Shown here: piece after piece, positions 6,377-64,000 of the stretch
How positions within the stretch are numbered: position 1 is the first letter of the stretch
How the letters are laid out: every line of letters begins with the position of its first letter
Origin: a virus
Taxonomy: Duplodnaviria; Caudoviricetes
Direction: 5' to 3' (one strand)
DNA length: 64,000 nucleotides
IMG/VR virus record: IMGVR_UViG_3300012952_003952
Span: 128,001-192,000 of that record
The notes under the pieces: generated by a model
What the model was told of the DNA's origin: nothing
Database searches by the model: none
What the model saw: the letters and a program-made list of their open reading frames with translations, nothing else
Position numbers and translations under genes: made by a program

Positions 6377-6984
6377 GCGATTCAAAATTACATTTATTGA
6401 CTAGTTGGACCCCGTTTGAATATACTCCAGACCAGATTCAAGAATCTAGAGACCAAAATGGCGGCAAGATTATGATGCGTGGTATTTTGCAAAAAGCTGA
6501 TACGCTTAATCAAAATGGCCGAGTATATCCTAGAGTTATACTAGATAGAGAAGTCCGAAATTATCAGAAATTCATTGCAGAAAATAGAGCGTTGGGAGAA
6601 TGTGACCACCCAGACTCTTCGGTGGTTGAACTCAAAAATGTTTCACATATTATCAGAGAAGCTCACATGGATGGAGATATCTGTTATGGTACGGTTGAAT
6701 TATTAGACACTCCTGCTGGAAAAATACTGCAAAGTTTAGTAGAGTCAGGTGTGACTTTAGGCATATCCTCACGAGGAGTGGGATCCACTAAGTCTGAAGG
6801 AGATCACCAAGTCGTCCAAGATGACTTTCAATTGATATGTTGGGATTTTGTCAGTGAGCCTTCTACCCCTGGAGCTTTTATGATGCGTGAAGGAGTGGAA
6901 GTCAGAAGGTCTGATCTAAATAAACATTTTAATAAAACAGACAGAATTGATAGAATATTTAACGATATTTTAGATTGGGAGTAA
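6373..6984 (+). CDS. prohead protease (T4 gp21-like)
   Basis: NQNGRVYP, GECDHP, GISSRGVGS and DFVSEPSTPGA motifs; GTG start with GGAGG upstream. Confidence 0.92.
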   Translation: MSDSKLHLLTSWTPFEYTPDQIQESRDQNGGKIMMRGILQKADTLNQNGRVYPRVILDREVRNYQKFIAENRALGECDHPDSSVVELKNVSHIIREAHMDGDICYGTVELLDTPAGKILQSLVESGVTLGISSRGVGSTKSEGDHQVVQDDFQLICWDFVSEPSTPGAFMMREGVEVRRSDLNKHFNKTDRIDRIFNDILDWE

Positions 6985-6987
6985 AAA

Positions 6988-7443
6988 ATGTCATACCAAA
7001 ACAGAACCGGCCCAGGTTGGAACTTCGCACCAGAGTATCAGAGCTCTGGTACGCCTTTCGTAACTTCTAGTAGAGATGGTTCAATTGCAACTGACTCAGT
7101 GTATACAGTTAAGTTCCCCACAGTTACAAGGTGGGTCCAAATTAGAAATACGGGGACTGGAAACTTAAAAGTAGGATTTACTTCTAACGGAGTGCAAGGA
7201 AAAGGCGGATCCGTTTCAGGTTCAGCAGCTGAACAAGCTGGTGACAATAGGAACTACTATATAATCCCCTCGGCTTCAAATTCAGATTCTTCTACAGTCC
7301 GCTGGGAGCTTCGTTGCGATAAATTATTTTTTCAAGCTAAAGACGCCGCAACAGGCTTTTCTGTAATAGCTGGACTTACTAATATTCGACCAGCTCAATT
7401 CTTCAAACTTACAGGATCGCAAGGATTCCAGGGAGTTGGATAA
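6988..7443 (+). CDS. hypothetical protein, possibly virion-associated
   Basis: 151-aa Gly/Ser-rich ORF coupled to the protease gene. Confidence 0.6.
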   Translation: MSYQNRTGPGWNFAPEYQSSGTPFVTSSRDGSIATDSVYTVKFPTVTRWVQIRNTGTGNLKVGFTSNGVQGKGGSVSGSAAEQAGDNRNYYIIPSASNSDSSTVRWELRCDKLFFQAKDAATGFSVIAGLTNIRPAQFFKLTGSQGFQGVG

Positions 7444-7865
7444 TGGCTAAAATTTCTAGAAACGCCCTGAAGGGTTTAGTAAAAGAATGTTTAGTAGAAA
7501 TACTCGCAGAAGGTTTGCTGGCTGAAGAAAAACCAGCGGCAAATAAAAAGAGTCTTAGAGAATCTGCTAATTCAAAAAGAAGAGCCCCTACGCGGCGACC
7601 TGCATTAGATCAGATAAGGATGGGAGAGCAAGACCGTCCGGTTGTTAATCCAACTCTGCCAGAAGTAAAAGATCCCATTATGGCTAGTATTTTTGCCGAT
7701 ACTGCGGCCAACACGTTCCAAGCCCAAGTTATGGCGGAGCAAAAAAGTTCAGTGGCTCAGAGGATGACCCACGGAGATGCTGCGACTAAAGCAATGGCCC
7801 AAAATGACCCAATGGATCTTTTTGATGGCGCAAATAATTGGGCAAAATTAGCGTTTGATACCTGA
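7443..7865 (+). CDS. hypothetical protein
   Basis: TAATG overlap with the previous gene; N-terminal LKGLVKECLVEILAE motif. Confidence 0.6.
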   Translation: MAKISRNALKGLVKECLVEILAEGLLAEEKPAANKKSLRESANSKRRAPTRRPALDQIRMGEQDRPVVNPTLPEVKDPIMASIFADTAANTFQAQVMAEQKSSVAQRMTHGDAATKAMAQNDPMDLFDGANNWAKLAFDT

Positions 7866-7923
7866 AAAAATCTCGAGTAGATGATAAGTAATATAGAACA
7901 ACCCCGTTCTAGGAGTTTTTAAA

Positions 7924-8217
7924 ATGTCAAGAAGAAACAGAAGTATAAAAAAGTTAACCCCATCTCTTCTCAAGAAGATGGTGCTGCAAGAGAGAAAGAG
8001 AATGAACGAAACTTCCGATCCTGTAGCAGCTGGTGTAGAAGATCCTGAAAAAGTAAAAGCCGAAGAAGTAGATGCTGATAAACTTGCGGGTAGTTTAGAA
8101 AAAGACTTAGACCACCTTAAGGCTCTTAAGATTCAAGAGACAAAAATACATCAGAAACTTAAGAAAATTAGGGAAGCTAAGCGAATTCTTGTAAAAAGAG
8201 TTGCAAAAAGAATCTAA
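7924..8217 (+). CDS. hypothetical protein
   Basis: AGGAG upstream; 97 aa, coiled-coil-like. Confidence 0.6.
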   Translation: MSRRNRSIKKLTPSLLKKMVLQERKRMNETSDPVAAGVEDPEKVKAEEVDADKLAGSLEKDLDHLKALKIQETKIHQKLKKIREAKRILVKRVAKRI

Positions 8218-8238
8218 TTTTATTAAGGAGTAATTTAA

Positions 8239-8763
8239 ATGCCTACGCACAAACAAGGAACCACCACTGCTATTCCAGGCGCTGGATATGGAACCGGTAC
8301 AGCAACAAGCCTCGGATCAGCGAACCACGGAGTTCAAGCTGCTAGCTTTCCAGGAAGCCCGCTTAACACAGTAGATCAGCTTACTGACGATGGAAGTTCT
8401 TCACCATCCAAAATGGCCGATTGGTACACCACAAATGTCTTGCAGGCAGTTATTAATGATGGTGGACATACTTTCGGTACCCAAGATATGGATTGGGGAA
8501 ATAACATTCCCGAGGGAGAAATTTCTAACGATGGTGGCGGCGCGCCGGCAAATGCCTTCGTTCCAAACACTGTTTCTCCAGGAGAGGGAAGTACAAACCC
8601 TGCAGATCAGCCTCCTGCTCCAGACGAAATAGCCAACATGGGACCTCACGATGTCTTCGGTACTGGAGTCGGCTCCTCATTGCCTGTGGCAGATTCATCT
8701 ACTACACAAAACACGGCAGCCATTGGAACCCTAGCTTCAGGTAAGTCTCCAGGCTCAGAGTAG
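8239..8763 (+). CDS. Gly/Pro/Thr-rich hypothetical protein
   Basis: AAGGAG upstream; 174 aa, low complexity. Confidence 0.6.
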   Translation: MPTHKQGTTTAIPGAGYGTGTATSLGSANHGVQAASFPGSPLNTVDQLTDDGSSSPSKMADWYTTNVLQAVINDGGHTFGTQDMDWGNNIPEGEISNDGGGAPANAFVPNTVSPGEGSTNPADQPPAPDEIANMGPHDVFGTGVGSSLPVADSSTTQNTAAIGTLASGKSPGSE

Positions 8764-8766
8764 TGA

Positions 8767-9339
8767 ATGCCCTTTAAGAGCTCAGGACTTGGCCATATAG
8801 CCACTTACGATGCGCGGGACGACCTCGGTTATGGTCGGATTCGCGCAAAGTTTGACTCACCTCGCAGCTTTATGCAATATGGAGAAATAGAGAGGGATCC
8901 TGAAGCTGAAGAATATGTTGACGACGATAGCTATGAAGCTATATTAACAAAAGTTTTGAATTACGATCCCGGTGATCCGTATGCCAAAAATAAAACAGAC
9001 CCATTCCACTTTGTAGATGGATCTACTAAAATATCTGAACTCTCTACCGCAAAGGGAATGGTACCATTTCCTAGAATGTATAAAAATAGAACAGGTTCAG
9101 GAACTGGTGGATCTGGAAAAGCTATAGCTCATGGTGGTCCCACAAATACTTTTAGGTCTATAACAAGGCCTACAGGGACAAAAAAAGGTTATTCTTCTGC
9201 ACCAGAGCCAATAGAAGTTTTACAAGACATAAACGGCCCCAAATATTCTTTAATGGATATTATTTTTGGGGATGAAGACTTAGAACACTTAGAGAGAATC
9301 CAAAATCAAGTATTTAAAATCCAAAATAGTCAAGAATAA
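8767..9339 (+). CDS. hypothetical protein
   Basis: 190-aa ORF starting 3 nt after the previous stop. Confidence 0.6.
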   Translation: MPFKSSGLGHIATYDARDDLGYGRIRAKFDSPRSFMQYGEIERDPEAEEYVDDDSYEAILTKVLNYDPGDPYAKNKTDPFHFVDGSTKISELSTAKGMVPFPRMYKNRTGSGTGGSGKAIAHGGPTNTFRSITRPTGTKKGYSSAPEPIEVLQDINGPKYSLMDIIFGDEDLEHLERIQNQVFKIQNSQE

Positions 9340-9434
9340 AGGAAATAATTTGGCACCCGCAGTTAAATCTTCCGTTTTGAGTGAATATTTACGATTATCA
9401 TAGTGATATTAGTTTCTTCTAATGAGAGAGGCAA

Positions 9435-11084
9435 ATGAGTAAAAATCTTTATAATGAAGCTATCGCAGAAGCGAAACAACTGCGCGAGATGGCGGAACAA
9501 AACGCAAAAAACAAAATAATCGAAGCAGTAACCCCTAGAATTAGAGCTCTTATCGAACAGCAACTTATGGATGATGTCGAAGAAGAGTCCGACTTAGTAG
9601 TTGGCGAAGAGGGTGTTGCTGAAGACGAAGAAATAGAAATTGCAGTTGCCGACATAACCCCCCTTGCTGCCCCGGCTCCAGAAGTAGAAGCCGCTCCAAA
9701 AGTTTCAATCACAGTACAAGGTGATTTAGAAATGGCGCTTGGAGAAGAAGACAGCGAAGAAGACGAGGATTTGATTTTAAGTCAAGAATCATTCTTACGC
9801 TTAGAGAATTTTTTGCACAATGTGTCAAAAACAAAAAGCTTTTCTGATAGAGTAGTTAGTCTTGCTAAAAGATTTAGCATGCTTAGAGAAGCTATCGATG
9901 GAGTAAATCTTAACAGGTGTACTTCCATTGAAAAACAGACGGCCATTATTTTTTATGGTCGTCTATTAGAGGAAGCTATTATATTATCTGATAATTTAAT
10001 ACTTATGAAAGAGTCCATTGACAATAGACTCGAATTACAATTAACTCAACTAATAAAGGAGATGAGCAATATGTCTAGAAGACGTGACGCAGCAGCTTTC
10101 AGGAGACTCTTTGAAGAGTTAACCAAGGATGAGGGTCTTGAGGAAGTGGGCATGTACGAACAAGAAGAAGAAGAAGTCGAAGTAGAGGACGAAGAGGTCG
10201 TAGACGATGTAGAAGTAGCCGCTGAGCCAGATGTGGATGCAGCTGAAGATGCATTATTGGACCTTGGAGCAGCTCTTGGTCTCGACGTCGAAGTCGAGCA
10301 AGCAGAAGAAGAAGTGGAAGTCGACGTAGAGGAAGAAGAAGAGATCACTCTTGAGGGTGAGCACGCAGATGAAACTGATGAAATGGACGAAGTCTATGAA
10401 ATCGATGAAGCGTCTCTCCGTCGTGAACTTCTTAAAATGAGAAGACTTCGTGAGCAAGAAGAGGGAAGAGCTGCTGAGGCAGATCCTGCACTTGCCCATG
10501 GCGGTGATGATGAAGGAGACGTTATTATTGATGTCGACGAAGATGCTTTATTAAATGCATTGGCTGATGAGCTTGGTGATCCAGGCGTTCCAGAGCCACA
10601 AGTAGAAGCATTCATTCGCCGTAGACTTCGCAGAGCTAGCCGACAGCTAGCAGAATCGCAGAGACGCAACAGAAGAGTTTCTCGTCGTAGATCGGCTAGA
10701 AGAACTTCAGCTCCTGCATCTAACAAAAGAGCCGTTATGGCTGAAAGAACTGTTTCTAAATTAAAGAAGCAGCTTAACGAAATGAATCTTTTTAACGCTA
10801 AGCTTCTATTTGCTAATAAGCTCATGCAGAATCGTGGGCTTTCAACGAAGCAGCAACGCGTAGTCGTCGAGGCACTCGACAAGGCACGCACAATCAGAGA
10901 GGCTAAACTCCTTTATAAGAGTCTTAGCGCATCTCTAAATCGAGGTTCCGGTAAGACTCTATCTGAGAGTCGATCTCGATTGCTCGCATCTTCATCCAAA
11001 TCAACCCGGTCAGGCGCGCCTGCCAAAAGTGGGAATGAGGTAGATCGTTGGGCAGTACTCGCCGGACTTGCTTCCAAAAAATAA
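9435..11084 (+). CDS. prohead core/scaffold protein (gp22-like)
   Basis: Very acidic coiled-coil protein with a basic C-terminal region, immediately upstream of the major capsid gene. Confidence 0.75.
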   Translation: MSKNLYNEAIAEAKQLREMAEQNAKNKIIEAVTPRIRALIEQQLMDDVEEESDLVVGEEGVAEDEEIEIAVADITPLAAPAPEVEAAPKVSITVQGDLEMALGEEDSEEDEDLILSQESFLRLENFLHNVSKTKSFSDRVVSLAKRFSMLREAIDGVNLNRCTSIEKQTAIIFYGRLLEEAIILSDNLILMKESIDNRLELQLTQLIKEMSNMSRRRDAAAFRRLFEELTKDEGLEEVGMYEQEEEEVEVEDEEVVDDVEVAAEPDVDAAEDALLDLGAALGLDVEVEQAEEEVEVDVEEEEEITLEGEHADETDEMDEVYEIDEASLRRELLKMRRLREQEEGRAAEADPALAHGGDDEGDVIIDVDEDALLNALADELGDPGVPEPQVEAFIRRRLRRASRQLAESQRRNRRVSRRRSARRTSAPASNKRAVMAERTVSKLKKQLNEMNLFNAKLLFANKLMQNRGLSTKQQRVVVEALDKARTIREAKLLYKSLSASLNRGSGKTLSESRSRLLASSSKSTRSGAPAKSGNEVDRWAVLAGLASKK

Positions 11085-11109
11085 TATAACAATATAAAGG
11101 AGATTTCAA

Positions 11110-13020
11110 ATGAGCAAGAAATTTACATTGGAGCAGTTAACCGAGGGTATTCGTCAACGTAACGTTGGATCGGGTAACAGTAGGTTAATTGAAAAGTGGT
11201 CTCGCACCGGTCTTCTCAGAGGACTTGAGGGCACTACTCGCGAAAACATGGCGGCACTGCTTGAAAATCAGGCATCCCAGGTTCTTCGTGAGGCTAACTC
11301 AATTTCCACCGGTGGTGGAAACTTAACTTCTTCTGGCGACCTCCGCGGTTTCCAGAACATAGCATTCCCAATCGTCCGTAGAGTTTTCGGCGGCTTGGTA
11401 GCTAATGAGCTTGTATCCGTACAGCCCATGAGCCTTCCATCAGGCCTCCTTTTCTATCTCGATTACACGTATGGAACTAATGTCGGTGGTGCAAATGCAC
11501 CTAAGGGTTCAACTTACGTCTCAGGAACTTCTATCTATAATGCACCTACAGGAAAGGGCGTTCGCTCCGGTTCTCTTGGAATCGGTGGACAGTACAACCT
11601 TGCAGGTTCTGGTTATTCCAGAGTCCACAAAGTTGCTACTAGTATCACTCTCCTCGCTTCTGGCGCGTTCATGGGAGACTCTACGTTCTCCGCAGGTGGT
11701 TCAGGCGCAAGACAAACTCAGCGTATGGTTGCTACTGGTTCTGACGGCAAGCTTCTACAGTTTGACGAGCAGATCTGTAGATTAATTGAAGATAACCCCA
11801 ACGCTGCTGGCGCTGGTGTTTTCAAAGCATACGTTGTTGATTTTGCTTCAGGCAAATTCGCAGATGCCGACACTAGTATGGTCAAAGACTTCGCTCTTAC
11901 ACCAGACGCAGGTGCTAACCCCACAATCCTCTCAAACACTCTGAAGTCAGAAGACGTTCAGGTCAGTGGTGATAACGTCCTTAACGTACGTCGTCTTAAC
12001 CAGTTAGGTAAGTGGAACAATGGTCAGTTCACCGCAGATCCTCTCGTAAAAGCTGGCGATTCTAACGCTGCGCTTCTATTGATTGTTTCTGGTGGTGGTG
12101 GCACTACTGATGCAACCGCTGAGCAGACTTATGACGTTGGTTATGTTCTTAGCCCAAGCTTGAATGCTGGATCTGATGGTGATACCCTTACGATTCCAAC
12201 TTTCGAGTCTAACTTTGCAACTACACCTTCTCCAGAGATCCCAGAGATCGATATCAAGGTAGAATCTATTGCGGTCACCGCGGTAACTCGTAAGCTTCGT
12301 GCTCGCTGGTCACCAGAACTCGCACAGGACCTAAACGCTTACCACAGCCTTGACGCTGAGGTTGAGCTTACTCAGATCCTTTCCGAGCAGATCGCACTTG
12401 AGCTTGACAGAGAAATTCTTAACGACCTTCTCACCCAAGCCAAGACCAACTTCTACTGGTCACGTGCACCTGGTAAGTTCATGAACAAGAGAAGTGGTAC
12501 TCTTATCACTCCCGGAGGCGCTGGTACTATTGGACCAAGCTTCACCGGTACTGTTCGCGAATGGTATGAGACGCTCGTTGAGACTATTATTGATGTTGCT
12601 AACGAAATTCACAGACTCACACTCCGTGGTTCAGCTAACTTCATCGTAGTTTCTCCAGACATCGCAACCATCCTCGAAGCATCCGTCCTCTACCGCCCAA
12701 GCTACAGCTTAGATGGTGATGGACAGGTCGGTACTCCAATGAGTATCGGAGCTGAGAAGGTTGGTACTCTAAGCAACCGCTTCACAGTCTACAAAGATCC
12801 TTACTTCCCACGGAACAAGGTACTTGTCGGATTCAAGGGTGGTAGCTACTTAGAGACTGGTTATGTCTATGCTCCATACGTACCGCTGATCGTTACGCCT
12901 ACTATCTTCGCTCCTGAGGACTTCACCCCAAGAAAGGGTGTTATGACTCGCTACGGCAAGAAGATGGTTCGTTCCGACTTCTACGGTACCGTTACTGTCG
13001 CAGACATGAACGTTATCTAA
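11110..13020 (+). CDS. major capsid protein, copy 1 (T4 gp23-like)
   Basis: LLENQ, FPIVRRVF, VSVQPMSLPSGLLFYL, RKLRARWSPELAQDL, EIL/LDREIL, YAPYVPL and GVMTRYG; AAGGAG RBS. Confidence 0.95.
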   Translation: MSKKFTLEQLTEGIRQRNVGSGNSRLIEKWSRTGLLRGLEGTTRENMAALLENQASQVLREANSISTGGGNLTSSGDLRGFQNIAFPIVRRVFGGLVANELVSVQPMSLPSGLLFYLDYTYGTNVGGANAPKGSTYVSGTSIYNAPTGKGVRSGSLGIGGQYNLAGSGYSRVHKVATSITLLASGAFMGDSTFSAGGSGARQTQRMVATGSDGKLLQFDEQICRLIEDNPNAAGAGVFKAYVVDFASGKFADADTSMVKDFALTPDAGANPTILSNTLKSEDVQVSGDNVLNVRRLNQLGKWNNGQFTADPLVKAGDSNAALLLIVSGGGGTTDATAEQTYDVGYVLSPSLNAGSDGDTLTIPTFESNFATTPSPEIPEIDIKVESIAVTAVTRKLRARWSPELAQDLNAYHSLDAEVELTQILSEQIALELDREILNDLLTQAKTNFYWSRAPGKFMNKRSGTLITPGGAGTIGPSFTGTVREWYETLVETIIDVANEIHRLTLRGSANFIVVSPDIATILEASVLYRPSYSLDGDGQVGTPMSIGAEKVGTLSNRFTVYKDPYFPRNKVLVGFKGGSYLETGYVYAPYVPLIVTPTIFAPEDFTPRKGVMTRYGKKMVRSDFYGTVTVADMNVI

Positions 13021-56100: not shown

Positions 56101-59100
56101 ATGAAAACACCCAGCAAGTTTTTTGGTTTACACGCGCATTCTGGCTTTTCTATTTTCGATGGGCTAGGTTATCCGCAAGAACATATTGATTTTTGTAGAG
56201 AGAATGGACTAGACGGATGGTCCATGACTGACCATGGTCACATGAACGGCTTTGGTCACGCTTATTTGCACACGGAAAAGCTAAATAAAGCAGGCGGTAA
56301 TTTTAAGTTAATCCCCGGCTGCGAGATGTATGTTCATCCAGATTTAGACGTGTGGAAGCTAGATTACGAAATCAATAAAACAGCTAAAAAAGGAGACAAA
56401 GAAGCTTTAGCTATTTTAAAAAAGCAGAGAGAAGCAATTCAAACTCCTCTTCTCGCTTTTGTAGATGAGCATGACGAAACTTTAAACGTTGGCCTAGAAG
56501 GCGCTTCTTTGACCGTTGAAAACGAAGAAGAAACTAAATCAGGAAAGTTTTATGATCCGATCAAGCGTCGTCACCATCTAGTGGTTTTACCAAAAACTTC
56601 CGAGGGATTGCAAAGGTTGTTCCACTTAGTTTCTCGAGGTTACACAGAGGGATTCTATAGATTTCCAAGAGTAGACTATAAGATGCTTAAAGAAGCCGCT
56701 AAGGGTGGCCATCTAATGGTATCGACAGCTTGTATCGGTGGACCGTTAGCCTATGACGTGTTCCAACCGCTGCAAGAAACCAATTTTGAAGATCTCATTC
56801 CTTCACTTTTTGATGACGAATCTTTAAGAAATAAAATTCTTTCTAAGTTTGAATATTCTTATGACCAGCTAGCGGATGCCGTTGGAGAAGAAAATGTAAT
56901 GCTGGAATTGCAGTTTAATAAACTCCCAGCGCAGCACTTAGTAAACAAAGCTATATTAGAATTCGCTAGAACGCGATCTTTAACAGATCAACTTATTGTT
57001 ACTTGCGATTCTCATTATGCTTCTCCTGACCACTGGAAAGAGAGAGAGCTTTATAAAAAGCTCGGGTGGCTAAACTATCAAAGCTTTAATCCAGATAATT
57101 TGCCCAAATCTAAAGAAGACTTAAAGTGCGAACTGTACCCTAAGAATGCAAAACAGGTTTGGGAATCATATCTTGAAACGACAGAAGGCCACGATTTTTA
57201 TGAAGATTCAGAAATATTTGACGCTATAGAAAGAACACATGATGTTGCTCACGAGATGATTGGAGAAATTCACCCTGATCGTAAAATGAAATTACCTTCT
57301 TATGTAGTTCCTAAAGGCCAAACAGCGAATAAAGCTCTTTTAGAAGCAGCTAAAGCTGGATTAATCAAGCGAGGACTAGCAAATCAACCAGAATATGTCG
57401 ACAGGATGAAGACAGAGCTTAAAGTTATTTTTGATAAAAATTTCTCTGAGTATTTCTTAACCATGAAAGCAATTATTGATCTTGCTCGCGAGAAAATGCT
57501 AGCTGGACCAGGCCGCGGATCTGGAGCAGGGTCTCTAGTGAATTACGCCCTTTATATTACTGACATAGATCCAGTGGAATATGGGCTCTTATTTGAGCGG
57601 TTCATGTCTCCAGAGCGAACCGAAATGCCGGATATCGACACCGATATCGCAGACCGAGATGAACTCATTAAAATTCTTAGAGAGAATTTTGGTAACAAAA
57701 ATGTGATTCCGATCTCAAATTACAATACTTTCAAGATCAAAAGTCTTCTTAAAGATGTTTCTAGATTTTATGGGATTGAATTCTCAGAAGTAAATAAGAC
57801 TCTAGCTTCTCTAGAAAGAGATGTTGCTCAAGGAAGAAAAGCAGACGGCGTGGACGCAGCTTTTGATATTAGTTTTGAAGAAGCCAAGAAGTATTCTACT
57901 AAAGTTAGTGATTATCTAGAAAAATATCCTCAAATTGCAGACCCTATCAATGTGCTTTACAAGCAAAATAAAGCACTTGGCCGACACGCTGGTGGTGTCA
58001 TTGTTTCTGAAAAAATAGAAGAAAGAATGCCTTTGATTGTGGCTCGTGGCGAAATGCAAACTCCTTGGGTCGAGGGAATGAACTACAAGCACCTTGAAGA
58101 GTTTGGTTGGATTAAGTTTGATCTCCTCGGCCTAGAAACTCTTAGAATTATCGAAAGAACAATTTCTCTTGTTTTACAAAAATCAGGGGTGGAGAACCCA
58201 ACGTTCGACCAGGTGGTAGATTGGTACAATGAAAATATTGCCCCAAACGTAATTGACTTCAACGATAGCAAAGTTTACAAAAACGTATATCACTCTGGAA
58301 GGTGGGCTGGTATTTTTCAGTGCACTCAAAGAGGTGCGCAAGCTCTATTTAAAAGAGCTAAGCCAGAATCAGTAGTAGATTTAGCTACTCTTACTTCTAT
58401 TTATCGTCCTGGTCCACTTTCTGCAAAAGTAGATAAGCTTTACATTAAAGCCAAAAACAATCCGCAGAATGTTTTTTATGGTCACCCTTTAATCGAACAA
58501 GTTCTAAATTCAACTTATGGAATGATTATCTTCCAAGAGCAAGTAATGGAACTTTGCCATGTCGTAGCCGGTTTTCCAAAAGCAGAATGTAATAAGCTTA
58601 GAAAGATGATGAAGCCGGTTGGGTCTGGTAACGAAAATGTAAAGAAGGCTGCAGCTCTAAAGAATAAATTCGTAGAAGGAGCTTCGCAAAATGGAGTAGA
58701 TAAAAATATAGCTAGCGAGCTTTACGATAGAATCTTGTATTTCAGTGGCTATGGTTTCAATAAGTCTCACGCTGTTTCTTACGCAGTTAATTCTTACCAC
58801 TGCGCTTGGCTTATGACTTACTACGAGCAAGAATGGATTCAAGCTTATTTAGAAGCTTGTTCTGGTAACCCTAAAAAGCTTTCTAAAGCCCTAAGCGAAG
58901 TAAAAGCTTTAGGATACAACATTGTTCCCATCGATATCAATAAAGCTGGTAAAGCTTGGAGTTGCGTAGACGACAATTCTTTGATGCCGTCTTTTCTCTC
59001 TTGTAAAGGCGTTGGCGAAGCTGCTGTAGAAGAAATCTTAGAGCAGAGACCTTACTCTTCTATTGAAGATTTGTTTTGGGATGAAGAAGGAAAGTGGAAG

Positions 59101-59700
59101 CATGCAAAATTCAATAAAAGAGCTATTGAATCTTTAATCAAGATTAGAGCTTTTGATTCTCTTGATTGTGTGGGTCCAGACAAAACTTTCCAAAGTTATT
59201 CTCACATGCACACTGTACTCATGGAAAACTTTAATGATATCAGGAAGAGAACCAAGAAAGATCCTTATCGCGGCAAGAATAACTTTATTAAAGCTTTAGT
59301 AGAATCTCCTCGTTCTGAAGAGTGGTCTTTCGATGCGTTGATGAACTTTGAAGAAGAGTTGTTGGGAACTATTAACGTAGAAGCTCTTCTTCCGAAAAAA
59401 TTCGTGAAGAAGATGACCGAAAAGAATATCCATTCTTTAGACGATCATAACGGAAGAGAGTTTTATTGGTTCGTTTTGACTAAAGCTATACCTAAGCTTA
59501 CAAAAAACAAGAAGCCATACCTTCTTTTAAATGGAATAGCTTCAACTGGAAGGGTCCATAGAATGTTTTGCTGGGGAGTTCCTAAAGATGCTGACCTTCC
59601 GCCGTTTACTTTTTGTATAGCCGAAGTAGACAAAAACGACTTTGGGATGTCTACTAAGTGGAACAGAATTAAAAAATTTAGCTTTAATGATTTAGCTTAA
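56101..59700 (+). CDS. dnaE: DNA polymerase III alpha subunit (family C)
   Basis: PHP motifs HAHS..S..DG, TDHG, GCEMY, CDSHY; GPGRGSGAGSL, FERF, MPDIDTD, GRHAGG, KFDLLGL, YRPGP and FNKSHA. Confidence 0.95.
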   Translation: MKTPSKFFGLHAHSGFSIFDGLGYPQEHIDFCRENGLDGWSMTDHGHMNGFGHAYLHTEKLNKAGGNFKLIPGCEMYVHPDLDVWKLDYEINKTAKKGDKEALAILKKQREAIQTPLLAFVDEHDETLNVGLEGASLTVENEEETKSGKFYDPIKRRHHLVVLPKTSEGLQRLFHLVSRGYTEGFYRFPRVDYKMLKEAAKGGHLMVSTACIGGPLAYDVFQPLQETNFEDLIPSLFDDESLRNKILSKFEYSYDQLADAVGEENVMLELQFNKLPAQHLVNKAILEFARTRSLTDQLIVTCDSHYASPDHWKERELYKKLGWLNYQSFNPDNLPKSKEDLKCELYPKNAKQVWESYLETTEGHDFYEDSEIFDAIERTHDVAHEMIGEIHPDRKMKLPSYVVPKGQTANKALLEAAKAGLIKRGLANQPEYVDRMKTELKVIFDKNFSEYFLTMKAIIDLAREKMLAGPGRGSGAGSLVNYALYITDIDPVEYGLLFERFMSPERTEMPDIDTDIADRDELIKILRENFGNKNVIPISNYNTFKIKSLLKDVSRFYGIEFSEVNKTLASLERDVAQGRKADGVDAAFDISFEEAKKYSTKVSDYLEKYPQIADPINVLYKQNKALGRHAGGVIVSEKIEERMPLIVARGEMQTPWVEGMNYKHLEEFGWIKFDLLGLETLRIIERTISLVLQKSGVENPTFDQVVDWYNENIAPNVIDFNDSKVYKNVYHSGRWAGIFQCTQRGAQALFKRAKPESVVDLATLTSIYRPGPLSAKVDKLYIKAKNNPQNVFYGHPLIEQVLNSTYGMIIFQEQVMELCHVVAGFPKAECNKLRKMMKPVGSGNENVKKAAALKNKFVEGASQNGVDKNIASELYDRILYFSGYGFNKSHAVSYAVNSYHCAWLMTYYEQEWIQAYLEACSGNPKKLSKALSEVKALGYNIVPIDINKAGKAWSCVDDNSLMPSFLSCKGVGEAAVEEILEQRPYSSIEDLFWDEEGKWKHAKFNKRAIESLIKIRAFDSLDCVGPDKTFQSYSHMHTVLMENFNDIRKRTKKDPYRGKNNFIKALVESPRSEEWSFDALMNFEEELLGTINVEALLPKKFVKKMTEKNIHSLDDHNGREFYWFVLTKAIPKLTKNKKPYLLLNGIASTGRVHRMFCWGVPKDADLPPFTFCIAEVDKNDFGMSTKWNRIKKFSFNDLA

Positions 59701-59701
59701 T

Positions 59702-59729
59702 TTGTAAATCTAGCGAAAGAGGATATTAT
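59702..59729 (+). promoter_or_regulatory. sigma70-like promoter for nucleotide-modification operon
   Basis: TTGTAA-N16-TATTAT; ATG lies 7 nt after the -10 box. Confidence 0.5.
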
Positions 59730-59735
59730 TACTAC

Positions 59736-60584
59736 ATGAATTCGAAATACAAAAATTTAAATCAAGCCTTTGTAGAAGAGTTAGTCGATTGCCACAAGAA
59801 CGGCGTAGAAGTTGAATCTCGTGGCTTCGTACAAAAAGAAAAACTTTTCTCTTCTTTTATAATTCAAGATCCCACCGATTTGCGAATTGATGTCCCAGCT
59901 AGAAAGTTCAATGAAGACTATGCAATTTTAGAATGGCTTTGGTACCTAAACTCTGACTCTAGAATAAAGACTATCGGTAAATTTGCAGATATTTGGAACA
60001 AGATTGCAGATTCGCAAGGGGTCGTTGAGTCTAACTATGGCTCTTATTTAAAGCCGTGCTGGTATGACTTAGTAGATGAGCTTATATCTGATAGAGATAC
60101 CCGTAGAGCAACTTGCGTAATTAATCAGCCATACCATAGGTTCAAAAACCCAAAAGACTATCCTTGTACGCACTATATTCACTTTTTTATCAGAGAAGAA
60201 GCTCTTCACATGGGCGTATATATGCGGTCTAATGATGCAGTTTTTGGTTTTTGTAACGACGTTTTCACCTTTGCGTTGTTTCAACAGCTTATGCTAAATG
60301 AACTAAACGCTCGCGGTGGTAAACTTTCATTAGGAACATACTACCACTCGGCTGGAAGCTTTCACGTATACGATAGACATTATTCTATGATGGAAAAGAT
60401 AGCTGAAAATTATTTTGTGAAAGCTAGAAGAAATGGGTATCCAACCGACTTAAAGAAAATAGTGCTAGATCCCAATTTAACCTGGCCGAAAATGGAAAAC
60501 TACACGTCTTTTTTCAATGAAGACTTAGACAAAGAAGAAGTTTTAAATACAATTAAAAAGACTAAGGAAATTATATTCAAATGA
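59736..60584 (+). CDS. thymidylate-synthase-fold enzyme, dCMP hydroxymethylase-like (T4 gp42 type)
   Basis: DTRRA, DYPCT catalytic Cys, MRSNDAVFGFCNDV with Asp at the base-specificity position, YYHSAGSFHVY. Confidence 0.8.
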   Translation: MNSKYKNLNQAFVEELVDCHKNGVEVESRGFVQKEKLFSSFIIQDPTDLRIDVPARKFNEDYAILEWLWYLNSDSRIKTIGKFADIWNKIADSQGVVESNYGSYLKPCWYDLVDELISDRDTRRATCVINQPYHRFKNPKDYPCTHYIHFFIREEALHMGVYMRSNDAVFGFCNDVFTFALFQQLMLNELNARGGKLSLGTYYHSAGSFHVYDRHYSMMEKIAENYFVKARRNGYPTDLKKIVLDPNLTWPKMENYTSFFNEDLDKEEVLNTIKKTKEIIFK

Positions 60585-60862
60585 ATATTCTAAAAAAAGC
60601 AAATGAGATAATCAATGAAAGATCTGAAGAAAAAGAGCGCCAATACGGCCCAATGGGTGAAGGCCTTGAAAGAGCTGCGATGATTGCTTCTGGAATAACG
60701 GGTAAAGATTTAACAGCAGACGATATTTTTGCATGCCTCATCGGCCTTAAATTTTCTAGACATTCGTATAACTACAAAGAAGATAATTTTCTAGATGCTG
60801 CTGCTTATTTGGGAGCGTGGAACAATTACCAACAGGAGAAATTAAAAAGTGAAGATAAGTAA
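60581..60862 (+). CDS. DUF6378-like small all-alpha protein (possible nucleotide pyrophosphatase)
   Basis: RQYG ... LIGLKFSR ... DNFLDAAAY pattern; ATGA overlap. Confidence 0.55.
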   Translation: MNILKKANEIINERSEEKERQYGPMGEGLERAAMIASGITGKDLTADDIFACLIGLKFSRHSYNYKEDNFLDAAAYLGAWNNYQQEKLKSEDK

Positions 60863-61283
60863 AGTAAGGGCAGTTAAAACACCGCAAAGGGGGACTCCAG
60901 AGTCAGCTGGAATTGATTTTTTCGTGCCAGAGGGAATGATAGCTAAATTATCGCCTGGAGACTCTTGCTTGATGCCAAGCGGAATCAAAGCCAATGTTCC
61001 ATCTGGCCATGCATTAATAGCGTTTAATAAGAGTGGAGTAGCAGTTAAGAAATCTCTTCACGTTGGGGCATGCGTCGTAGACGAAGATTATCAGGGCGAA
61101 ATTCACCTTAATTTAATCAATGTTGGCTCGAGCGTTGCAGAGATAAAATCTGGAGAAAAAATAGTCCAATTTATTTTACTTCCTGTTTTTTATGACACAA
61201 TTGAAGAAGTAGAATTGGAAAACCTTTACGAAGACGAAACTGTTCGAGGTGAAGGTGGTTTTGGTAGCACGGGAGTAGAATAG
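60849..61283 (+). CDS. dut: trimeric dUTPase
   Basis: AGIDF, KSGVA, VVDEDYQGEI, IVQFIL and RGEGGFGSTG. Confidence 0.92.
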   Translation: MKISKVRAVKTPQRGTPESAGIDFFVPEGMIAKLSPGDSCLMPSGIKANVPSGHALIAFNKSGVAVKKSLHVGACVVDEDYQGEIHLNLINVGSSVAEIKSGEKIVQFILLPVFYDTIEEVELENLYEDETVRGEGGFGSTGVE

Positions 61284-62353
61284 TGGATTATTTTGTAGAT
61301 TATGAAATTCCTAAAAACTTTAAGATAGGGATCGACGGACTAGAGAGAAACATTCCGGCTAGAAAACACAGCCACAATGCTGCCTGGGTTCATCTCTACA
61401 AAAATATGCTACAATCTGCTGGCTGGAGTGATGTACACGTCTTAGGCAATCATGACACTTACGAAGGTTATGATGCTATGATATTTTATCCAGGAATTGC
61501 TTACGCTGGAACGATTAACTTCTTTTTTGGAGTTGACGACAATGTAGTTAGAAGGTTCTCCAGAATTCAAGATTTTGAAGGTCCGACTTTTATTTTAAAT
61601 CATGAAATGCCGCTCATTGGAGCGACGATCAGCAAAAGACTGCACAATAAATCGACAAGCTCGAAAATTGGAAATCTTAAACTGAGCTTATTAGATGATA
61701 TTTGCAAATCTACTCGCAGAATAGATTATGTTGAAAGATCAACAAAGCTTTGCTTTGGAGACAGTCATTGTTTTTCTGCTTATCTTCCAGGGTATTCTGT
61801 TTGCCGAAATGACGGGCTCACTCTTTTTTCTACGCTTCGCGATGGAGTAAAAGAGACCATTGAAGAAAAATATGGAGCTTCTGTTGAAAATTTGACTCAT
61901 CTTACTTTTTATATGGGCAATATTGATATAAGGCACCACTTGATGCGCCAAGAAAATCCATATGAAAAAATCCACGCTATGACTATCGAGCTTTCACACC
62001 AGCTTAAAAAACTTGATATACCAAACATTGAACTAGTTCACGCACTGCCTATCGAAAATATTTCTAGAAAACTTCCTAAAACTGGATATTATAAGAAGAC
62101 TCCATATTTCGGAACTTGGGAAGAAAGAACAAAATTAGTCAATACATTCAATGCCGCTGTAGATAGAATTTGTATAGAAAACAAATGGAATTCTTTCCAC
62201 TGGCCAGCTAAATTTTTAAATGATTCTGGTGAATTAGACTTTGAATATATGGAGCGCCCTAAAAGCGTACACTTAAGCCCGCTTTCTTATAGGTGGGACC
62301 TTTTTGAAAATCAATTAAATTTATTGCATAGTAATCAAAACAACGGAGAATAA
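61283..62353 (+). CDS. two-domain unknown: glucosyltransferase-N-like plus SGNH-like
   Basis: C-terminal FGDSH, GNIDIRHH and SVHL (SGNH-type blocks); N-terminal KIGI..YDAMI..INFFFG recalls T4 beta-glucosyltransferase. Confidence 0.5.
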   Translation: MDYFVDYEIPKNFKIGIDGLERNIPARKHSHNAAWVHLYKNMLQSAGWSDVHVLGNHDTYEGYDAMIFYPGIAYAGTINFFFGVDDNVVRRFSRIQDFEGPTFILNHEMPLIGATISKRLHNKSTSSKIGNLKLSLLDDICKSTRRIDYVERSTKLCFGDSHCFSAYLPGYSVCRNDGLTLFSTLRDGVKETIEEKYGASVENLTHLTFYMGNIDIRHHLMRQENPYEKIHAMTIELSHQLKKLDIPNIELVHALPIENISRKLPKTGYYKKTPYFGTWEERTKLVNTFNAAVDRICIENKWNSFHWPAKFLNDSGELDFEYMERPKSVHLSPLSYRWDLFENQLNLLHSNQNNGE

Positions 62354-62354
62354 T

Positions 62355-63545
62355 ATGCCAAAAAACAAGTCAATTAGAGTTGCAATCGTCGGAGTCGGAA
62401 ATTGTGCTAATTCCTTTTACCAGGGCTTAACGTATTATGCGGGGTACACCGCTGGACAAGAGCGCGATGGAGTGATGAAGAGCCGAATCGGAGGATATTC
62501 GGTAGCTGATCTCGAGGTTGTAGCAGCATTCGACGTTGATAAACGAAAAGTTGGAAAGTGTTTTAGAGAAGCTATGCTAGCCAAACCAAACTGTACTCCA
62601 AGCTATGAGGCAAATGTTCCTGACGGTCCCGTAGTTCAAATGGGCCCAATCATGGACGGTGTTCCAAATTTGATGGCTAATTATTCTGATGAAGAAGCGT
62701 TTAGAACTGCTGATTTAGAACCAGTAGATGTGGCTCAAGTGTTATTAGACCGCAAAGTGGATATTCTTATCAACTATCTTCCTGTTGGTTCTCAGAAGGC
62801 CACCGAGTGGTATGCAGAACAGTGCCTTAAGACTGGAGTTTCTCTTCTTAACTGTATTCCAGTTTTTATTGCTTCTAATCCAGTTTGGGAGCAAAAGTTT
62901 ATTGATGCTGGAATTCCACTCGTTGGCGATGACATGAAATCTCAATTTGGGGCCTCTATTATGTCTCAAATGCTTCAAGAACTAGCTTTTGCTCGAGGTC
63001 TAAATGTTAAAGCTCACATTCAGCGAAATGTCGGTGGCAATACTGATTTCTTGAACATGGTAGATCAATCTCGGCTGAAATACAAGAAAGTTTCAAAGGA
63101 GAATGTAATTCGATCTCAACACGTAATTCGTGGTGTAGACCCCGAAGAATCTTTCCTCCATGCTGGGCCGTCTGAATATATTCGCTACTATGGAGATAAC
63201 AAGGTCGCAAACTTCCGAATTGAAATGGAGGGATTCCTTGGTGCCCCAGTTATTTTAGACGCGCAGCTTTCTGTAATTGACTCTCCTAACTCTGGAGGCG
63301 TTGTAATCGACGCCGCTCGGTATCTAAAAGTCGCCAGAGAGATGGGCATTGTAGGGGCTCTCAGAGGTCCGTCTGCTTTTACTCAGAAGACTCCGCCTCA
63401 ACAGCTTATGTTTAGTGAAACTCTTTATGAATGCGACGCTCTTTCTGATAGGAGGCTCACTCGATTTACTAAGCGCCAAACAGAAAAATACAGCGCTGAA
63501 GAGCTTTACCTATCGTGTCCAGCAGGAAACAAGGAAGTAGATTAA
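62355..63545 (+). CDS. ino1: myo-inositol-1-phosphate synthase
   Basis: VAIVGVGNCA, AAFDVDKRKVG, NYLPVGS, NCIPVFIAS, GDDMKSQFGAS, NVGGNTDFLNM, GPSEYI and DSPNSGGVVIDA. Confidence 0.95.
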   Translation: MPKNKSIRVAIVGVGNCANSFYQGLTYYAGYTAGQERDGVMKSRIGGYSVADLEVVAAFDVDKRKVGKCFREAMLAKPNCTPSYEANVPDGPVVQMGPIMDGVPNLMANYSDEEAFRTADLEPVDVAQVLLDRKVDILINYLPVGSQKATEWYAEQCLKTGVSLLNCIPVFIASNPVWEQKFIDAGIPLVGDDMKSQFGASIMSQMLQELAFARGLNVKAHIQRNVGGNTDFLNMVDQSRLKYKKVSKENVIRSQHVIRGVDPEESFLHAGPSEYIRYYGDNKVANFRIEMEGFLGAPVILDAQLSVIDSPNSGGVVIDAARYLKVAREMGIVGALRGPSAFTQKTPPQQLMFSETLYECDALSDRRLTRFTKRQTEKYSAEELYLSCPAGNKEVD

Positions 63546-64000
63546 TGGCTAAATTGCATGAGCAAAAAGGAAAACTTTTTAATCCAGACTCTGAAGATTT
63601 TGAAGAGTGTGTAATAAAGTTTAACGGAAGGAATGGGTTTTGGTACAGACCAGGCACTTTTGATTTAAATTCTATAAGAGAGTGCAGAGACAATTATAGC
63701 GATATTGACACTTGCGGGAAAACAGTTTTAGATTTAGGAGCCAACATTGGAGGATTTTCAAGAATGGCTCTAGAAAAAGGAGCTAAAAAAGTAATAGCTT
63801 TAGAGCCATGCCCTCATAATTTTCAAATTTTAGAGATCAATGCCCCAAATGCAGAATGTCTAAATGCTGCAGTTTGCGAAAGCAAGGTAAAAGAAGTAGT
63901 TTTTCATTATGCTGGATCTAAAAGAAACTCAGTGTCGTCTTCTACTCTTAAAAGAAGAAATGCTTCTGGAGTATCTATTGCAGTACCAGGATTATCATTT
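63545..64000 (+). CDS. FkbM-like SAM-dependent methyltransferase (3' end outside window; absent from ORF track)
   Basis: TAATG overlap with ino1; open to the window end: MAKLHEQK...KTVLDLGANIGGFSRMALEKGAKKVIALEPCPHNFQIL...LNAAV. Confidence 0.8.
   Translation, partial: MAKLHEQKGKLFNPDSEDFEECVIKFNGRNGFWYRPGTFDLNSIRECRDNYSDIDTCGKTVLDLGANIGGFSRMALEKGAKKVIALEPCPHNFQILEINAPNAECLNAAVCESKVKEVVFHYAGSKRNSVSSSTLKRRNASGVSIAVPGLSF

Follow-up and report, generated by a model that had tools for sequence, protein, structure and literature searches.

A probable cytosine-hypermodification cluster in a caudoviricete virus encodes an inositol-phosphate synthase and a HAD phosphatase

The window analysed here is a stretch of 64,000 nucleotides of a virus of the Caudoviricetes, bases 128001-192000 of the IMG/VR record IMGVR_UViG_3300012952_003952 (G000; 241,978 bp, estimated to be 57% complete), so that coordinates in the record equal window positions plus 128000. 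At its end lies a row of genes for a thymidylate synthase (TS)-fold enzyme, a DUF6378 protein, a dUTPase, an SGNH protein, a myo-inositol-1-phosphate synthase homologue (MIPS, the product of ino1) and an FkbM-family methyltransferase, and a HAD phosphatase and a mostly helical protein follow beyond the window (Table 1). A sequence-only reading had proposed that the first six genes follow one promoter and that they attach an inositol, possibly O-methylated, to a modified cytosine of the phage DNA. The positions and families given there for six plus-strand open reading frames (ORFs) agree with the Pfam, PHROG and NCBIfam assignments, and the junctions were found as described (ATGA, a 14-nt overlap, TAGTG, a 1-nt gap and TAATG), the last one with ATG 63545 as the FkbM start, which has an AAGGAAG-like ribosome-binding site. 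The extent of the row was underestimated, as it runs on for at least nine further co-directional genes past window base 64000, and a gene block of about 11 kb is cut by the end of the window. A single promoter for the six genes is not established, because sigma-70-like sequences with 9/12 consensus positions are no more frequent in the region than in shuffles (21 observed versus 19.7 +/- 5.0) and only 35 nt separate the row from the DNA polymerase III alpha (PolIII-alpha) gene. From its gene content, the block is quite likely to serve cytosine hypermodification; attachment of inositol to the phage DNA, as a putative adduct, is a serious possibility which we propose tentatively.

Table 1. Features of the gene row; positions are those of the window or, where marked G000, of the source record
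Feature	Position	Strand	Basis or remark
Sigma-70-like promoter match TTGTAA-16-TATTAT	59702..59729	+	9/12 consensus positions, inside 35-nt gap after PolIII-alpha gene
TS-fold enzyme, 282 aa	59736..60584	+	PF00303; predicted gp42-type dCMP 5-hydroxymethylase
DUF6378 protein, 93 aa	60581..60862	+	PF19905 at 1.4e-12
Trimeric dUTPase, 144 aa	60849..61283	+	PF00692 at 1.1e-21; TIGR00576 105.1 bits, cut-off 102.55
SGNH protein, 356 aa, two domains	61283..62353	+	alpha/beta domain 1-145; SGNH/GDSL domain 150-335
myo-Inositol-1-phosphate (inositol-3-phosphate) synthase homologue (MIPS, ino1), 396 aa	62355..63545	+	PF01658
FkbM-family methyltransferase, 238-248 aa	63515/63545 to window end; stops at G000 192261, 261 nt beyond window	+	TIGR01444, PF05050
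HAD phosphatase, 138 aa	G000 192271-192687	+	HAD motifs, phrog_415
Helical aGPT-Pplase/amino-acid:DNA-transferase-like protein, 484 aa, C-terminal winged helix	G000 192680-194134	+	PF18723 (HMUDK_hel) sole Pfam family
C5-DNA-methylase-like gene	G000 194134-195312 (L002 7135-8313)	+	
GalE-like short-chain dehydrogenase/reductase	G000 195297-196283	+	
Thymidine kinase	G000 196268-196837	+	
Cupin, phrog_7851 ('cysteine dioxygenase')	G000 196895-197323	+	
DHH phosphoesterase	G000 197324-198223	+	
dCMP deaminase	G000 198210-198614	+	

From its sequence, the TS-fold enzyme is predicted to be a gp42-type dCMP hydroxymethylase making 5-hydroxymethyl-dCMP. It matches Thymidylat_synt (PF00303) at 1.2e-17, and its 48 bits fall far below every one of the NCBIfam TS equivalog cut-offs, which are at least 327. 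The closest solved structures are the CMP hydroxymethylase MilA (6e-23) and T4 gp42 (2.4e-20), and gp42 homologues are its top phage matches. When it is aligned to T4 gp42 with HMMER, the catalytic Cys is C144 (T4 C148, ThyA C146), an acidic residue, D141 (T4 D145), occupies the column of ThyA L143, the Asp of ThyA D169 is kept as D167 (T4 D171), and D175 (T4 D179) stands at ThyA N177, a column that is marked by entries 6l18 and 6a9a, both D179N mutants. Each of the four residues is conserved in 8 relatives, down to 44% identity. A 2026 NAR paper reported that Asp at ThyA N177 confers dCMP preference, that an acidic residue at ThyA L143 accompanies hydroxymethyl and not methyl products, and that D169N is the mark of 5-hydroxy-dCMP synthases (PMC13326640). 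The signature in the window is that of a dCMP hydroxymethylase rather than of a TS or a 5-hydroxy-dCMP synthase, which bears out the earlier assignment of this gene as gp42-like. It is very improbable that the row merely serves ordinary nucleotide metabolism, with a thymidylate synthase among unrelated neighbours and no DNA modification. The two TS-defining positions hold Asp and not Asn or Leu, the TS score is as low as described, the nearest solved and phage relatives are hydroxymethylases, and the row holds a DNA-base transferase-like protein with a winged helix; these points outweigh the presence of dUTPase, thymidine kinase and dCMP deaminase, which are standard dTMP-supply genes, and the finding that this is the sole TS-fold gene in the source record and in a complete 293-kb relative, with no ThyX found in the genome search.

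The 356-aa protein, which the sequence-only reading had called a transferase-like unknown, has an SGNH fold. The Pfam search returned nothing at E up to 10, and the family, which has more than 700 members, is without a Pfam model. The alignment-based AlphaFold2 model (predicted local distance difference test, pLDDT, 89.6) divides into an alpha/beta domain at the N-terminus and an SGNH/GDSL domain at the C-terminus. Foldseek matched it to GDSL esterases and acyltransferases of the PDB at 1.5e-4 and below and to SGNH clusters of AFDB at 8.5e-9, and the VIA structural search gave Z up to 13.2, the peptidoglycan O-acetyltransferases PatB and OatA included. Because the four SGNH residues S161 (FGDSHS), G178, N213 (GNID) and H330 are invariant across 35 homologues, the protein is probably an active esterase or acyltransferase. 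The DUF6378 gene adjoins the SGNH gene in all relatives, including a marine scaffold without MIPS (L049), in which the DUF6378 protein is 67% identical.

The 484-aa protein matches PF18723 with 29.5 bits (cut-off 25; 28.3 bits in the genome scan), as do most of its homologues, and the Atlas clusters with PF18723 bear the name 'Pplase clade 1' (aGPT-Pplase). In its model (pLDDT 87.5), residues 1-375 are all-alpha, a disordered linker comes next, and residues 412-484 form a winged helix. The exhaustive VIA search recovered the winged helix with Z 10.8; the best match outside it was the PaMx11 gp46 5-PmdU glycinyltransferase 8z2m (Z 9.5, root-mean-square deviation 4.7 A, 232 of 287 residues aligned), where a Z below about 13 is attainable by chance for helical proteins, and the next was the queuine-salvage protein DUF2419. 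The Foldseek search of the PDB gave no match below E 0.27. As modelled, the protein resembles members of the aGPT-Pplase / amino-acid:DNA-transferase (AADT) superfamily. The complex prediction of the SGNH protein with residues 1-380 of the helical protein scored 0.00, which is evidence neither way. The Pfam name of the family ('5-hmdU DNA kinase, helical domain') would make the protein a kinase, and this candidate was rejected, since the model is all-alpha and the Walker-A-like GFIVDGKS is not conserved beyond G64.

The sequence-only reading had suggested looking beyond position 64000 for a kinase, a nucleotidyltransferase or a glycosyltransferase. The HAD phosphatase and the aGPT-Pplase/AADT-like protein were found there instead, and no glycosyltransferase or nucleotidyltransferase lies in the 13 kb beyond the window. 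The P-loop kinase family PF18748 (HMUDK_HMUD1) was absent from the source record and five relatives, including the complete genome, and neither HMUDK_HMUD1 nor Ploopntkinase3 was found in the record or the complete 293-kb relative. PF18724 (ADDT) had no match in the source genome, and tblastn of the TET, kinase3, TAGT, c2 and Que genes against it gave none. No known base kinase is present, which makes activation the weak point of a reading in which inositol is placed on DNA.

The SGNH and helical parts form a single 795-aa protein in the Aeromonas phages 44RR2.8t and 31 (PHROG 17781), whose gp42 shows the same signature as the window enzyme. These T4-like phages with the fusion hold the cytosine-replacement set of gp42, gp56, alc and denB without a glucosyltransferase, and whether their hydroxymethylcytosine (hmC) is decorated has stood as a question since 2010 (PMC2993671). 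A gene for an SGLT-type sodium/solute symporter lies directly upstream of the fusion gene in 44RR2.8t (ORF234c/ORF233c, L007 5375-9355), and a phage-encoded symporter could import the group attached to hmC in place of its synthesis by MIPS and HAD. In a 720-aa protein from a JGI metagenome (P0193), an FkbM domain is fused to a helical PF18723-type domain. Three catalytic domains are found joined to the helical module when the kinase implied by the Pfam name is counted with SGNH and FkbM. The more distant marine phage L049 (a 177-kb ENA scaffold, 6945-11709) has no MIPS and carries FkbM, DUF6378, SGNH, two small ORFs and a 409-aa helical-like protein, then a weak PALP (pyridoxal-phosphate-dependent) enzyme, a dUTPase_2-like gene and PolB; this variant may make a different, amino-acid-derived adduct. 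Comparison of the helical-protein profile with the 409-aa protein by hhalign gave nothing, and Atlas features are the sole link between the two. On account of the fusions and the relatives without MIPS, the core is taken to be DUF6378, SGNH and the helical protein; FkbM is often part of it, and the accessory genes are variable.

The target base could in principle be a thymine derivative, if 5-hydroxymethyl-dCMP were deaminated to 5-hydroxymethyl-dUMP, or dUMP were the substrate, and the helical transferase acted on 5-hydroxymethyluracil (5hmU). The sole Pfam family and the best structural match of the helical protein do come from thymidine-hypermodification enzymes, and dCMP deaminase and dUTPase are within the row. 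We nevertheless regard this as improbable: the Asp at ThyA N177, which confers dCMP preference by the published rule (PMC13326640), is conserved in every relative, the thymidine kinase in the row suggests that ordinary dTMP is wanted, the SGNH-helical fusion occurs in Aeromonas phages with the cytosine-replacement set, and the 5-hmdU DNA kinase was not found. Cytosine remains the predicted base.

Tara Oceans and further aquatic metagenomes supplied related contigs. One close relative is a complete genome (293,409 bp, with terminal repeats), and megablast of the region against GenBank phages gave zero matches. The order TS, DUF6378, dUTPase, SGNH, MIPS, HAD and helical protein is kept at 44-49% identity, also where PolB replaces PolIII. 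The gp42-like gene, ino1 and the 356-aa gene therefore stay together in relatives and on a different polymerase backbone, as the sequence-only reading would expect; the condition that it had named as refuting, ino1 not co-occurring with the gp42-like gene in relatives, is not what was found. The FkbM gene behaves differently. The complete gene, which extends past the window, scores 85.9 bits against TIGR01444 (cut-off 37.7) and matches PF05050 at 1.3e-14. The sub-lineage of the window has it inserted between MIPS and HAD, and it is missing from L019, L055 and L057, which keep ino1. It is absent from these ino1 relatives, and in phages that lack ino1 it adjoins the core or is fused to it, so that O-methyl-inositol is not favoured and the methyl part of the proposed adduct is weakened; the FkbM methylase belongs to the inositol-independent core.

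The order of genes is not rigid in detail. In L013, L014 and L017 the helical gene is only 24-32% identical, with flanking genes at 70-90%, as in a cassette swap (L013 12340-14625). In L016 (11903-12622, 14526-16261), FkbM is separated from HAD, and the helical gene from the C5-methylase-like gene, by additional ORFs. The C5-cytosine DNA-methylase-like gene and the end of the helical gene overlap. PolIII-type relatives retain this methylase-like gene, L019 and L055 do not have it, and its presence suggests that some cytosines stay unreplaced or that the enzyme has another role.

The MIPS homologue covers the whole Inos-1-P_synth profile (PF01658 at 4.1e-22, profile positions 1-107/107) and matches Mycobacterium tuberculosis Ino1 (1gr0) at 9.3e-88 over residues 5-351. 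The exact cyclitol is uncertain, because the protein also matches the five-membered-cyclitol-phosphate synthase (6k96, 2e-49) and reaches 328 bits against TIGR03450 (5.9e-98), for which the equivalog cut-off, the level at which glucose-6-phosphate could be trusted as the substrate, is 638. The 138-aa HAD protein follows the synthase in about 35 of 43 viral loci and cultured phages. Its motifs DIDGV (DxDGV), ITGRS, K and FEDD are conserved in 22 homologues; it matches phrog_415 (polynucleotide kinase/phosphatase) at 1.1e-9 and Pfam only at E 0.2, and it is minimal and capless, with a resemblance to the polynucleotide-kinase phosphatase domain.

The ORFs around all 43 viral MIPS loci were clustered and representatives annotated. 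A DNA-base-modification marker lies no more than 4 ORFs from MIPS in 40 of the 43, the exceptions being phage RP13, a short contig and another contig whose MIPS gene lies at the edge. The MIPS-HAD pair occurs in three unrelated contexts. Besides the gp42/SGNH/helical cluster, about 22 loci, including Caulobacter phage Cr30, have the order Tet_JBP, an ADDT/aGPT-Pplase-like protein of about 400 aa (c2), MIPS and HAD, sometimes followed by a TET-associated glycosyltransferase (TAGT) and then Ploopntkinase3. Eight loci, including Stenotrophomonas phage Mendera, are 7-deazaguanine clusters with FolE, a DpdA/TGT-like gene, MIPS, HAD, QueC and QueE. Profile comparison among the MIPS-neighbour families c2, c28/c106, SGNH, c31, c40 and helical showed no relation except that of c28 with c106. 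The recurrent siting of the pair by DNA-acting base-modifying enzymes, and its place in this row between SGNH and helical genes that are fused in other phages, favour a DNA-related fate of the cyclitol.

The same data can be read with the inositol left off the DNA. The 5-hydroxymethylcytosine (5hmC) would then be hypermodified otherwise, for example to acyloxymethyl- or methoxymethyl-cytosine, and MIPS-HAD would be a mobile auxiliary cassette in a variable DNA-metabolism region, its product going to virion glycans or a compatible solute or redirecting host glucose-6-phosphate. Many phages have the core without MIPS, and fusions to the helical domain occur for FkbM as well as for SGNH; the pair is self-contained and recurs in unrelated contexts, and no kinase, nucleotidyltransferase or glycosyltransferase was found to handle inositol. 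A free cassette would not be expected so regularly within 4 ORFs of a DNA-acting modification enzyme, rather than in glycan or envelope islands, nor exactly between two genes fused elsewhere, at 44-49% identity and on two polymerase backbones. We consider this explanation rather unlikely, and it keeps substantial weight because of the 7-deazaguanine context and because the core works without MIPS.

In the pathway that we propose, the gp42-type enzyme would make 5-hydroxymethyl-dCMP, the dUTPase, dCMP deaminase and thymidine kinase would adjust the pyrimidine pools, and 5hmC would enter the DNA during replication. The SGNH enzyme and the helical protein with its winged-helix tail would then act on the hydroxymethyl group within the polymer, and MIPS and HAD, sited exactly between their genes, would supply the attached group. 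myo-Inositol or its 1-phosphate may be the oxygen nucleophile, like serine in phage ViI, with a hydroxyl displacing an activated 5-methylene leaving group; the phosphate would be removed before or after transfer, so that HAD may act on free inositol-1-phosphate or on the DNA-linked product. O-acylation catalysed by the SGNH enzyme might replace phosphorylation as the activation, which is a guess. The FkbM methyltransferase would act somewhere in the core pathway and not specifically on inositol. An inositol adduct on cytosine is thus plausible. A wider scheme, in which a portable MIPS-HAD cassette supplies a cyclitol to gp42-made 5hmC, to TET/JBP hydroxymethyl pyrimidines and to 7-deazaguanines, and the window lineage adds a kinase-free SGNH/aGPT-Pplase-like activation, is doubtful.

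Several findings weigh against inositol on cytosine. The core of DUF6378, SGNH, helical protein and FkbM is widespread without MIPS, for example in L049 and Aeromonas 44RR. No known hydroxymethyl-base kinase is present in the record or the complete relative, and hence the known activation step is missing, and the structural match of the helical protein at Z 9.5 is within the chance range for such proteins. The C5-DNA-methylase-like gene, together with the lack of a recognisable gp56-type dCTPase (dUTPase_2) in the genome, argues against complete cytosine replacement. In the 7-deazaguanine clusters there is no hydroxymethyl group to displace, so the association of MIPS-HAD with modification genes may mean something besides nucleophile supply. 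On the other side, the TS-fold signature, the aGPT-Pplase/AADT-like protein and the synteny agree with the DNA-hypermodification cluster that the sequence-only reading had seen. Its notion that the row follows T-even logic with an inositol adduct stood in part: the start is predicted to be of the hmC type, but the logic of nucleoside-diphosphate (NDP) sugars and glycosyltransferases is missing, and the thymidine-hypermodification pathway is closer.

The known phage DNA hypermodifications consist of sugars, amino acids, polyamines and small groups. In the library searched, full-text literature searches linking inositol with DNA modification (hypermodification, JBP, 7-deazaguanine, aGPT-Pplase) found nothing relevant; a cyclitol-bearing base is not known to have been described, and the sequence-only reading likewise knew of no described inositol DNA modification. 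If the proposal is true, a cyclitol-bearing base would be a new chemical class of natural DNA base, and an SGNH enzyme replacing the base kinase would be a new transferase or activation chemistry and a second, kinase-free route to hypermodified pyrimidines. It would also give phages a new way to evade restriction enzymes and modification-dependent nucleases. Cultured phages with the pieces make the question directly testable: the SGNH-helical fusion occurs in the Aeromonas phages, and MIPS-HAD in Caulobacter Cr30, Stenotrophomonas Mendera, Moby, IME-SM1 and YB07, and Ralstonia RP13. Since the core genes are abundant in marine metagenomes, as the size of the SGNH family indicates, a sizeable share of ocean phage DNA may be modified, and an unrecognised modification may affect its sequencing and enzymatic handling.

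Some neighbours of the row are also of note. Window positions 56101-59700 encode the alpha subunit of a bacterial-type DNA polymerase III in full length, with PHP, NTPase, finger and HhH domains, and the Tara contig L055 has PolB at the matching position. A few genes downstream of the row, a 228-aa protein (G000 201020-201706; L002 14021-14707) has an Fe/Mn superoxide dismutase C-terminal domain (9.6e-14). The phrog_7851 cupin is also present a few genes from the TET/MIPS cluster in Caulobacter phage Cr30 (gp128, L006 4031-4480) and may be a further component common to both clusters.

In the bacterial inositol pathways, those of mycothiol (MshA/MshA2) and of phosphatidylinositol-phosphate synthase with its phosphatase, inositol-1-phosphate is conjugated first and dephosphorylated later. 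The row resembles them in pairing an Ino1-type synthase, closest to M. tuberculosis Ino1, with a phosphatase; it differs in that the acceptor would be DNA and the phosphatase is a 138-aa capless HAD protein and not an IMPase. As compared to T4, in which gp42, gp56, gp1 and the alpha/beta-glucosyltransferases glucosylate hmC, the gp42-type enzyme has the same four residues, and decoration after replication would likewise be expected to protect from restriction. The row lacks the glycosyltransferase/NDP-sugar logic within 13 kb and a recognisable gp56-type dCTPase, and has the SGNH and aGPT-Pplase-like proteins as candidate decorators.

The thymidine hypermodification of phages ViI, M6, PaMx11, SP10 and PhiW-14, with its TS-family hydroxymethylase, 5-hmdU DNA kinase, aGPT-Pplase/AADT transferase and tailoring enzymes, shares with the row a TS-family enzyme for a hydroxymethyl pyrimidine nucleotide, genes for making or tailoring the adduct between the core genes and, as the helical protein is read here, a post-replicative helical member of the aGPT-Pplase superfamily (PMC5889632, PMC8989533, PMC11472151). 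In ViI, the serine hydroxyl is ether-linked to phosphorylated 5hmU by an aGPT-Pplase, and in M6 and PaMx11 the adduct-tailoring genes are placed between the core genes (PMC5889632, PMC8989533). In the row, by contrast, the predicted base is cytosine, no P-loop base kinase was found and the constant partner is an SGNH enzyme. What the supply genes make is a cyclitol, where those pathways use an amino acid or polyamine, and the helical protein, of the PF18723 clade, has a winged helix. The arabinosyl-5-hydroxycytosine clusters of RB69 and DLP3 likewise combine a TS homologue with synthesis of the attached group within the cluster (PMC13326640). Those enzymes carry D169N and make 5-hydroxy-dCMP, and GT-B glycosyltransferases and UDP-arabinose are used for the attachment, whereas the window enzyme keeps D167.

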